From the NCBI GenBank assembly GCA_030295235.1, contig AP026134.1, positions 682,001-746,000 of the forward strand: DNA of 64,000 nt. Reading direction: 5' to 3'. The translations under genes and the position numbers were made by a program. The notes beneath the pieces were generated by a model. It did not search any database, was not told where the DNA came from, and saw nothing but the letters and a program-made list of their open reading frames with translations. The stretch comes from Fistulifera solaris (taxonomy: Eukaryota). Of the stretch, positions 1-3,427 are shown in pieces; the stretch's first letter is position 1, and each line of letters starts with the position of its first letter.

Positions 1-2735
1 TCTTTGATTGCATGTCTTCGGCAACAACAATTTTAGATGCTAGGTTTACCCGTTCTTGAGCTCTGCTTAGGAGTCTACCATCCATATGCACAGGTTCGAA
101 TCGCGTCGACAGGTCCTTCATTATCTTTGCATACATTTTGTCCTCGTCCGACGCAATTAATGATACACTGCATCCCACGGCATCTTGACCAACACCGCGC
201 TGCACGATAAAAAACAAAAAGCACGAGTTAGAGACGCAAAAGTAGTACCTTCACTAAAGGCCAAACTTCGTAGCTCAGACAGCCAAGGGAACAATGTTTT
301 GTCTCTACATAAAGTTTTCAGAGACTCTAGTCCATACACACACTGTGTTCATCAACGCCAAACCCTGCAAAGCTTGACGAACAAGAAGATACTTACCGCC
401 GTACGCCCTGACCGATGAACAAAGGTATCAACCTTTCGCGCAGCATCGTAATGGACGACAGTTGAAACCGAGGGGATATCCAAACCGCGCGCTGCCACAT
501 CCGTTGCAACAACGACAACATTCCCTGTAGCGTTACGAAACGACTCTAATACTTTGATACGTGCTCGCTGTAATTATGATAAAACAGAAACGCATCAGTT
601 AAATTTCAGGGCGAACAATTGAACAATTGAGGCAGCAAGATATCGCGTCAAGGGCTCAGAGATTGTTCACATGACCCTCATGGGAGCGACATAAACAAGT
701 CGTTTTGACGAGCCATATGTCTCAGGAAACAGTTATTTTCCTCACAGCCACATGACAAAGGAGACTAACATCCCAACCAACGTACCTGTTGCATGTTTGC
801 ATGTAGCATTTTGGTTTGTATACCCAACGTTTGCAATGTTGTACCAACACGCTTCACAGCGGCAATCGAATTACAAAATACTAAGCAGGGCCCAGATCTG
901 CCTTCTTTCGTTGTCATTAAATAAGCGTACAAATGGGAATCCTTGTGCAACTGTGTGCACTTTATTTGCTGCAGACGAAGACCCGGTGGCAGGCGAAATC
1001 TGTCATTGGGATCTTTCTTTTGCTTCTTCTTTTCATTGCTTACGGTAGCTTTAGTAGTTGGTTTTTCACTGTGGGAGAGATCAACAATTTTTGCTTTTCC
1101 TCCTGCGTGAGCGATTTCGACAAGTTGAGCGATTGCCCCGTCTAAAACGGATGTATCAGTCCTCTTTCGCTTCTTGGATTTTTCCGAACCAGGTAAAGTC
1201 AGCGTGGCGGAAAAGATGAAGGTTTGGCGATGCACAGGTGGGGATGAAGGCAAACTAATCGCATCCTCATCAGACTCGGATTCATACTCATGCTTTGACT
1301 CCTCTTCGTATTCGTCATCTTTGGGTTTGTTCGCCTCTGCTGGTTCTTGGCGCTGTTTCGCCAGCTCATTCAAGATATTATCACTTAGCATCGTCACTTT
1401 GGCTTCGCCTCGAATTCCTGGCAAACCCAACATGCGATCGCAGTCTTCTTCGTCGACGTCATCCATGTCCTCATCGTCGGATTCGGTCATAGGGTTGGCC
1501 CGATGTACCGCATCCAATATGCGTCTCAATTGTTCGAATGACCCTTGTTGATTCATGCGATCAGCTTCATCCAAGACCAAGAAGCGCAATTGAGACAAAT
1601 CATTTAAATGAGGGTGCTCACGACTCGACATCTGTTAAAAGGCATTCAATGGTGAGATAAGCGAAGGGATACGAGCAATTAATAAGAGTTTGATAGTCTC
1701 CGACAATAATCGGCTCGACATTGTTGGAACTCCGACGGATGTCTAGATTGCGATGTAATTTCTTCTTCGACATAAAAAACCACTCTTTTCATACATTGCA
1801 GACTTACCAACTCCCACAGTCGTCCGACTGTTCCCACCAGAATAGTTGGCCTATCTACATCTAGTACACGAGCCTGTTTGGCTTGAGCTAGCCCTCCTAC
1901 TATACATCCAATCGATGCAAACGCCTTCCCAACCTTTTCAACTTGCAGCGCCAGTTCTCTCGTAGGGGTCAAAATCAGAGCTTGAAGCGGGGAATGTCGA
2001 GATAAATTGGCATCCAGCAAATGCTGCACAATTGGCAGGATGTAGGCCAGAGTCTTACCTGACCCCGTGGGGGCCGCGCCCAAGATATCGCATCGCCCAA
2101 GAATTGCAGCTGGAAGCGTTGCGGCTTGAATCGGCGTGGGGGTCCAAAATTCGTTCTTCAGAAGTGTGTTACAGATCTTGAGATGCAGCAACACCCCACC
2201 AGTTGCACCACACCATGATGATTGTAGAGAAATTGTCTCCTCCGACGTTTCGCCTGTACTAGTAACAGTCTTTGCCGGGACCTCGGTCGACGAATTGCTC
2301 TTACCCTTCGGCTTTTTTCTTCTTGGTTTTCTTCTTTTTGTGTGCGTTAACTTTTGAAGAGGACGTATCTGGTTTTAAGACCCTGTCTTTCTTGTCCTCA
2401 ACAAGCCCTCCGTCTGTATTTCCGACGTCCTGCTTCAATACACTCTGCTTCTTTACCTTTTTTGTGGTGGCCTTCGATGCTTTTTCCGCATTTGGTTTGG
2501 TATGTTTTTCGTTCGGTGAAGGATTATCCAGTATTGTAAATGATGTTTTACCGTCTAGTATTTCAACTTTGTAGGAGTCTCCGCTGAGCACTTCTAACCC
2601 ATTGAAAATGGCGACTTGTTCGCCGGGCTCGACCGGTAAATCTTTGGAACTAACTTTGACATCTGAATGATCGTAATGATTCTTTTCCGAGTCTTCTGGG
2701 TCATCCAGAGAGACGTTTACTTTCTTCCAAGGCAT
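1..2735 (-). CDS. DDX24: DEAD-box RNA helicase DDX24/MAK5-like (ribosome biogenesis); 3' end lies outside the window
   Basis: Motifs [45 protein letters not shown]. Long acidic insert between motifs II and III is typical of DDX24/MAK5. GT-AG introns at 1632-1807, 568-785 and 200-396 restore the frame. One homopolymer frameshift near 2312. Confidence 0.88.
271..360 (-). ncRNA. Intronic box C/D snoRNA, double guide (predicted LSU rRNA sites equivalent to the SNORD53 and SNORD52/snR78 targets)
   Basis: In DDX24 intron 200-396. C box UGAUGA (354-349), D' CUGA (321-318), D CUGA (278-275), short terminal stem. Guide before D is complementary to LSU ACAGCCAAGGGAAC (14 nt, 279-292). Guide before D' is complementary to LSU GACUCUAGU (323-331). 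Confidence 0.88.
653..749 (-). ncRNA. Intronic box C/D snoRNA candidate guiding the LSU A-loop Um (yeast Um2921 equivalent)
   Basis: In DDX24 intron 568-785. Variant C box GUGAGGA (745-739), internal CUGA, D box CUGA (659-656), GGC/GCC terminal stem. A 10-nt guide adjacent to D is complementary to LSU GAUUGUUCAC (661-670). Confidence 0.7.
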
Positions 2736-3427
2736 TGGCAATAATTTAGCCTTAAACCAAAGGATCATCAAGCAAATGGATAGACGATGAGTTTTATGGA
2801 AGTTTTGCGGCAAACAATATGGCAACGAAAATTCGTCTGGATGGATGCAAATAAAGTCGTCTGTCAATCCACCAGGGGATCTTCTCATCTCCCGTCTCGC
2901 GTCTTCGGACATTTTCCGGGACTGGATTTGTTACTTTGATGCTACCGTAACCCGCATGTTATAGGTTCTTGGTCACCCGCAGTAAAAAACACATTTAAAA
3001 CTGTAGTAACTCAATAGCGGTGCATTGGATGTAATCGCTTCAAATGATATCGCTCAAAATACAGCACCAACACGTCCACAATGGAAAGAAACTTGATTCT
3101 CTTGTGAAAGTAATGCGTTTTGAAATACATATTTTATGAGGTACAGAGGCATTTTTGATCGTAATAATTTCCGTGAAAAGTGTCCGGGACTGGGTTTACT
3201 GAGTCACCAATAAGTTACTTTTATAGTTAAAAATTCTAAATAGTAGAGAGCGACGTAAGCAGGTAATAGAGTAAAAGGAATATATTACGGAGTATCTGAT
3301 ATATTATATAATTGAATGACGATTGTCGCTTTTCAATAAAACAAATGGAAAGCCTAAAGAGTAGACGGTTTCATTGGCAGATATAAAACGGCAGTAGGAA
3401 ATCATCTTTTCGTCTCTGAAATCTCAG

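Follow-up and report, generated by a model that had tools for sequence, protein, structure and literature searches.

A predicted double-guide box C/D snoRNA of the snoR37/Z157 type in an intron of a diatom DDX24/MAK5-type helicase gene

We analyzed a 64,000-nucleotide (nt) stretch of the Fistulifera solaris genome (contig AP026134.1, positions 682,001 to 746,000; hereafter the window), which opens with a gene for a DDX24/MAK5-type RNA helicase that is read on the minus strand and extends from before position 1 to about position 2930. One of its introns, intron A, contains an element that we call snoRNA A, which has the layout of a box C/D small nucleolar RNA (snoRNA) with two antisense guides to the large subunit (LSU) ribosomal RNA (rRNA). 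With a probability of roughly 85%, the minus strand from 360 to 271 encodes an intron-borne double-guide box C/D snoRNA that is the diatom counterpart of plant snoR37 and of the Rfam family snoZ157, a reading favored because its boxes, its geometry, its guides and its conservation in orthologous introns agree. The neighboring intron B contains a second conserved snoRNA (snoRNA B), and intron C lies farther upstream in the gene. Table 1 lists the coordinates of these features.

The host gene was identified from its exons. Over 283 residues, the exon at 786–1634 matches the NCBI entry ‘ATP-dependent RNA helicase DDX24/MAK5 [Fistulifera solaris]’ with 100% identity, which bears out the proposal of a first-pass annotation, made by a model from the DNA letters, that the element sits in a DDX24 intron of a diatom. 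The next-best matches are diatom proteins with 45–58% identity, several of them named DDX24/MAK5 by JGI. The gene carries the DEAD-box motifs, including HRSGRTAR, and groups with DDX24/MAK5 by these names, which are automatic annotations. When the homologs from Mayamaea and Nitzschia (P0005 and P0017) were aligned to the window by tblastn, both were collinear with it across the two downstream junctions, and introns A, B and C are fixed by this collinearity. Intron A is bounded by GT at 396–395 and by AG at 201–200.

Read from 360 to 271, snoRNA A has the order UGGCG-UUGAUGA-(16 nt)-GGACUAGAGUCU-CUGA-AAACUUUA-UGUAGA-GACAAAACAUU-GUUCCCUUGGCUGU-CUGA-GCUA. The C box lies near the 5′ end, the D box lies near the 3′ end and a short terminal stem of four in-register pairs joins the two ends, as in the box C/D class. 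All of the parts that the first-pass annotation had placed at 271–360 (C, D′ and D boxes, terminal stem and two antisense elements) were found there; it had left the strand unstated, and the RNA is that of the minus strand. Each antisense element stops 1 nt before its D′ or D box. The combined guide motif, GACTAGAGT-N20-50-CCTTGGCTGTCTGA, has a single occurrence in the whole 64-kb window and none in 100 dinucleotide-preserving shuffles. About 75 nt separate the D box from the 3′ splice site downstream of it, a distance that resembles the spacing favored in vertebrate intronic snoRNAs.

Table 1. Positions of snoRNA A, its host gene and snoRNA B in the window
Feature	Coordinates	Strand	Details and basis
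Box C/D snoRNA A, double guide	271..360	minus	about 90 nt; sequence, best Rfam match snoZ157, orthologous-intron conservation
C box UUGAUGA	349..355	minus	sequence; TGA.GA the same in all 7 aligned diatom-type copies
5′ (D′) guide GGACUAGAGUC	323..333	minus	invariant in alignment of 7 diatom-type copies
D′ box CUGA	318..321	minus	orthologs CUGA or CCGA; degenerate in L060
C′ box UGUAGA, degenerate	304..309	minus	TG..GA pattern kept in 7-copy alignment
3′ (D) guide GUUCCCUUGGCUGU	279..292	minus	CCCTTGGCTGT invariant in 7-copy alignment
D box CUGA	275..278	minus	invariant in 7-copy alignment
Terminal stem	UGGC 360-357 with GCUA 274-271	minus	4 consecutive in-register pairs
Helicase exon downstream of intron A	2..199	minus	runs off window start; homolog alignment
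Host intron A	200..396	minus	197 nt; GUAAGU donor, CAG acceptor; splits helicase motif VI (HRSGRTA/RGVG)
Helicase exon between introns B and A, carrying motifs V and VI	397..567	minus	homolog alignment
Host intron B	568..785	minus	218 nt; homolog alignment
Upstream part of DDX24/MAK5-type helicase gene, including intron C (1632-1807)	786..2930	minus	homolog alignment
Conserved box C/D snoRNA B, inside intron B	~653..750	minus	orthologous introns
snoRNA B boxes	C GUGAGGA 745-739; D′ CUGA 725-722; C′ UGAGGG 680-675; D CUGA 659-656	minus	
snoRNA B guide GUGAACAAUCU	660-670	minus	terminal stem GGCU/AGCC

The rRNA targets were located by searching prokaryotic assemblies with the reverse complements of both guides and by measuring complementarity on the eukaryotic LSU fragments found there. 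An rRNA pattern scan found the two target segments together in 24 loci, always 43–44 nt apart (24 of 24), in the LSU context CCACAGCCAAGGGAACGGGCUUGG...GAGCUUGACUCUAGUC(C/U); the scripted comparison of the fragments took in 23 of the 24 loci, and all four target loci tested were LSU_rRNA_eukarya by Rfam. On these eukaryotic fragments, both antisense elements are rRNA complements of at least 10 nt. The D guide GUUCCCUUGGCUGU forms 14 Watson-Crick pairs with LSU ACAGCCAAGGGAAC, and the D′ guide GGACUAGAGUC forms 10–11 pairs with LSU GACUCUAGUC(C/U). In box C/D snoRNAs, methylation is expected on the rRNA nucleotide that lies opposite the snoRNA's fifth nucleotide before the box (the D+5 rule). 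Counting five nucleotides upstream from D′ leads to A326, which pairs with the U in GAC[U]CUAG; the corresponding position for D is G283, whose partner is the C in ACAG[C]CAAG. The two predicted target nucleotides are 56 nt apart in LSU rRNA.

This spacing can be compared with mapped modifications. In Arabidopsis, Um2422 and Cm2366 were both mapped by RiboMethSeq, and the tables of that study equate Cm2366 and Um2422 with human Cm3869 and Um3925, and Um2422 with yeast Um2421 (PMC8583080). Human listings assign Cm3869 to SNORD53/53_92 and Um3925 to SNORD52 (PMC5597630), and a yeast listing assigns Um2421 to snR78 (PMC5699541). The 56-nt spacing of the snoRNA A targets is the exact distance between Arabidopsis Cm2366 and Um2422 and between human Cm3869 and Um3925. 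From its register, the D′ guide is predicted to direct 2′-O-methylation at the U that corresponds to Arabidopsis U2422, human U3925 and yeast U2421, and the D guide is predicted to direct it at the C that corresponds to Arabidopsis C2366 and human C3869. The first-pass annotation had named these same two targets, ACAG[C]CAAG as the SNORD53 site and GAC[U]CUAG as the Um2421 site of snR78 and SNORD52, and its assignments hold because the 56-nt spacing and the published site assignments match them.

We now turn to the family to which snoRNA A belongs. In a covariance-model scan of Rfam, the best match was snoZ157 (RF00333), aligned over its full length with both guides in place, at 35.2 bits (E = 8e-5), short of the 55 bits at which the gathering score of this family is set. 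The snoZ157 family (Z157/R69/R10, clan CL00063) and snoRNA A have both guides and all boxes in the same order, with the U-site guide before D′ and then the C-site guide before D; the plant model has a hairpin in its D′–C′ linker, where snoRNA A has a short GUCUC/GAGAC stem instead. Arabidopsis AtsnoR37 (with three gene variants, At3gCDbox88.1, At4gCDbox88.2 and At4gCDbox88.3) is likewise listed as a double-guide C/D snoRNA for 25S Um2422 and Cm2366, the assignment being given for AtsnoR37-1 (PMC8583080). Comparing AtsnoR37 by its assigned targets, we infer that it is the RNA modeled as snoZ157. In plant-like metagenome loci, snoRNAs of this type occur within tandem clusters of snoRNAs, whereas the diatom RNA is a single copy in the intron of a protein gene.

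The next Rfam match after snoZ157 was Tetrahymena TtnuCD15 (RF02291), whose expression was reported as confirmed by primer extension (PMC3273799). It has the same two-guide layout, with GACUAGAGU before D′ and CCCUU.GCUG before D, but snoRNA A scores 31.8 bits against it (gathering score 75), the 3′ guide consensus of TtnuCD15 is 2 bases off, and TtnuCD15 comes from a ciliate and has no helicase-intron location. Human SNORD52 and SNORD53/SNORD92 and yeast snR78 share target nucleotides with snoRNA A, and Rfam places SNORD52 and snoZ157 in one clan; in human, unlike in snoRNA A, each of the two sites is listed under a snoRNA of its own. The Rfam table in the Thalassiosira rotula genome paper contains one snoZ157 match. 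The first-pass annotation had described one RNA that does the job of two vertebrate snoRNAs. Both guides do lie on one RNA, but the novelty was overstated, since AtsnoR37 and snoZ157 were already known. Because AtsnoR37, snoZ157, TtnuCD15 and the metagenome variants described below all share the double-guide design, snoRNA A is a new diatom example of a known and widespread snoRNA type, not a new design. One RNA for both sites is a widespread arrangement among eukaryotes, to which the separate snoRNAs of human are one alternative, and none of these results alters how snoRNAs are understood.

To describe this family, metagenomes were scanned with GACTAGAGT-N20-50-CCTTGGCTGTCTGA, which yielded at least 141 matches in at least 123 loci (142 matches with the window's own) and at least 74 distinct core sequences with this two-guide layout, the window copy counted. 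Among the matches listed, all but 5 of the distinct sequences examined have a C-box-like TGANGA upstream; one of these 5 is cut by its contig end and the others have no match. By composition and context, the listed loci comprise tandem snoRNA clusters of plant-like character, protist-like loci that are GC-rich or AT-rich, and others. Only 3 of 20 loci scanned passed the Rfam threshold, all of them plant-like (66.9–88.7 bits), and so the plant-trained model misses non-plant snoR37/Z157 members at its threshold. The terminal stem is a shared feature of the family. Across 78 distinct members with usable flanks, it has a mean of 4.06 consecutive in-register pairs, compared to 1.57 when the flanks' partners are swapped (maximum 2.03 in 500 trials). 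At stem positions 3–4, AT, TA, CG and GC pairs occur in comparable numbers and the pair types covary. The window copy's four pairs equal the family median.

A further element, GG(G/A)GUAGUAGC / GGGUAGUAGC, recurs in the D′–C′ linker of many of these loci (L001, L003, L013, L023, L034, L035, L043, L044, L046, L060, L061, L079, L095 and L116). The window copy and L024 lack it. A search of the partial LSU fragments for its complement gave only one match, with 1 mismatch and in 1 locus.

The element's conservation was assessed at the position of the intron itself. A tblastn search of the window's helicase exons against the 123 loci listed by the metagenome scan identified the orthologous helicase in L024, L061, L079, L060/L043 and L034, with exon identities of 41–67%; L060 and L043 are two near-identical contigs, which makes five independent diatom-like loci in all. 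In each of the five, the snoRNA lies in the same intron, between the exons homologous to 397–567 and 2–199. An alignment of seven diatom-type copies shows no change in TGA.GA, in GGACTAGAGT, in the C′ pattern TG..GA or in CCCTTGGCTGT plus CTGA, and variation elsewhere in the intron; both guides keep their exact D+5 register in 7 of 7 copies, and the terminal stems differ in sequence and retain their pairing. The comparison of orthologous introns that was suggested at first pass thus finds boxes and guides preserved. The best named protein matches of these loci are raphid pennates for L024 (Mayamaea, an ‘Amphi...’ MMETSP sample and Epithemia, 53–58%), Thalassiosira for L061 and L079 (71–72%), Cyclotella and Stephanocyclus for L034 (80–82%) and Eucampia for L060 (58%). 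Since the loci span raphid-pennate-like to Thalassiosira-, Cyclotella- and Eucampia-like lineages, the intron position is conserved widely across diatoms. In the diatom orthologs, snoZ157 is again the top Rfam match and below threshold (34.7–49 bits).

Several of these helicase genes hold further snoRNA-like sequences. The ortholog of intron A in L079 (1617–2157) is about 510 nt long and contains Z157-like, U14-like (38.8 bits) and SNORD52-like (27.1 bits) snoRNAs, and that in L034 (1–402) contains two tandem Z157-like copies. L024 has an extra Z157-like snoRNA (2600–2700, 33.8 bits) in a downstream intron of the same gene, a region beyond the window; in this copy, the register of the 3′ guide is altered and the D box is CCGA. 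A sixth candidate helicase ortholog, L116, was dropped because its match was weak (39% identity).

Several observations count against the presence of a double-guide snoRNA. The complementarity of its guides was measured on anonymous eukaryotic LSU fragments, and the literature searched held no RiboMeth study of diatoms. Its Rfam score lies below the gathering score, as does that of every other match in the window. Its C box has a U at the R position of RUGAUGA (as it has in L012, L050 and L123), and its C′ box is degenerate. Its terminal stem is short, and the flank duplex (−7.1 kcal/mol, shuffles −4.6 kcal/mol) has a z of −1.28, compared to a family median of −2.22. The whole molecule folds no more stably than shuffles (z = +0.6), a value that says little either way, as C/D snoRNAs usually show no extra whole-molecule fold stability. 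Some of these points would suit a snoRNA-derived relic that has kept its motifs and forms no stable ribonucleoprotein, while another copy, for example on a homeologous chromosome set, does the work. The stem also has no more than 4 base pairs (bp); of six other helicase-intron copies that were scored, four have 5–8 and two have fewer (3 and 2). The U24-like snoRNA of intron C looks degenerate, which gives snoRNA decay a precedent in this gene. However, the two guides and the four boxes are all undamaged, the register between boxes and guides is kept, and all of these match orthologs whose helicases are only 41–67% identical, whereas a relic would be expected to carry substitutions like those of intron C. 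We consider a relic unlikely.

A functional RNA with a single methylating guide, the other serving as an accessory or chaperone that pairs with and folds the neighboring rRNA, appears slightly less probable still. The targets are just 56 nt apart, the D′ duplex has 10–11 bp compared to 14 bp for the D duplex, and L060 retains its guide beside a degenerate D′ box; for yeast, the Arabidopsis table (PMC8583080) gives methylation at the U site only and leaves the Cm2366 counterpart blank. Yet both sites are listed as methylated in Arabidopsis (PMC8583080) and human (PMC5597630), and both guides keep the exact D+5 register in every aligned diatom-type copy. Least credible is a chance resemblance, or an antisense rDNA fragment inserted in the intron, even though the plus strand does have two rRNA-sense segments in rRNA order. 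Chance fails against the shuffles. The 32 nt between the segments have no similarity to the 43-nt rRNA spacer, and a scan for 8-mer complementarity found extended overlapping runs at the two guides only, with stray 8–9-nt matches that fit chance; the rDNA-fragment idea is rejected because extended LSU complementarity is limited to the guides. Taken with the precisely placed boxes and the element's conservation in orthologous introns, these results effectively refute both ideas and leave a double-guide snoRNA as the preferred reading.

For such an RNA, established intronic C/D snoRNA biology supplies the likely steps of processing and methylation. The helicase pre-mRNA would be spliced, intron A would be debranched and exonucleases would trim it from its ends. 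Trimming would halt at the terminal stem and the C/D kink-turn, shielded by the core proteins Snu13, Nop56, Nop58 and fibrillarin. The two antisense elements, whose sequences are complementary to neighboring, highly conserved segments of LSU rRNA domain V, would then pair with them, and fibrillarin would methylate the 2′-OH of the nucleotide that the D+5 rule selects for each box. For the D′ guide this would be the U in GAC[U]CUAG, and for the D guide the C in ACAG[C]CAAG. Expression of snoRNA A would be tied to a 60S-biogenesis helicase gene that in diatoms appears to carry several LSU-directed snoRNAs in consecutive introns. In diatoms, where snoRNAs and rRNA modification are almost uncharted, the result adds a snoRNA that is well supported and is predicted to guide methylation at two rRNA sites, together with a conserved snoRNA in the neighboring intron.

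That neighbor, snoRNA B, has a guide and D box that are identical in 5 of 5 orthologous introns, and its terminal stem covaries (GGC/GCC versus GGU/ACC). The LSU complement of its guide, GAUUGUUCAC, is found in 10 of 23 fragments, 2 of them exact and 8 with a mismatch at the first position, many fragments being too short to extend to this site; GGAU[U]GUUCAC is its predicted target in LSU rRNA. In Rfam, snoRNA B fits no family, the best match being snoU61 at 19.2 bits (gathering score 55). Intron C tells a different story in the window than in its relatives. In four diatom-like relatives, this intron contains a C/D snoRNA whose guide UUGCACGUCAGU, which we take to be of the U24/SNORD24 type, is followed by CUGA, and SNORD24 scores above its gathering score beside Z157-like snoRNAs in two other protist-like loci. 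A search of the whole 64-kb window for UUGCACGUCAGU with up to 2 mismatches gave 0 matches; the aligned stretch of the window's intron C has CGGA for CUGA and no canonical C box, and its U24-like snoRNA appears degenerate. When the window was scanned in a crude way for further 10-nt guides complementary to LSU beside NUGA, about 10 more matches appeared, the number expected by chance on a rough estimate, none with a convincing C box.

In the diatom relatives, then, consecutive introns near the 3′ end of the helicase gene carry U24-like, GUGAACAAUCU-guide and snoR37/Z157-like snoRNAs, and some lineages have extra copies or U14-like or SNORD52-like additions in helicase introns. It is conceivable, at slightly less than even odds in our estimate, that the DDX24/MAK5 gene is an ancient, diatom-wide and dedicated host of LSU-directed guide RNAs, of which Fistulifera has let the U24-like member decay. 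If so, one transcript would couple the production of a 60S-assembly helicase with that of guides for the same subunit, and the link would make a tidy case for the co-evolution of a host gene and its snoRNAs. The literature searched held no description of a DDX24/MAK5 host with several snoRNAs, nor any paper on box C/D snoRNAs in stramenopiles.

The intron assignments also bear on the deposited helicase model. The F. solaris DDX24/MAK5 protein (656 residues) ends in ...MQQVRWLGC, and the window positions concerned are 765–1634, 397–567 and 2–199 on the minus strand. This end is a read-through of the donor into intron B, and the deposited model therefore has no counterpart of the last two exons, which hold motifs V and VI. 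The gene model can be corrected.

The target search had a by-product in the assemblies themselves. The 24 contigs that contain the target segments (L124–L147) are filed as bacterial isolate assemblies or bacterial metagenome-assembled genomes and carry eukaryotic LSU rDNA. Because the four of them tested are LSU_rRNA_eukarya, these contigs are eukaryotic rDNA contaminants of bacterial assemblies; one carries a group I intron.

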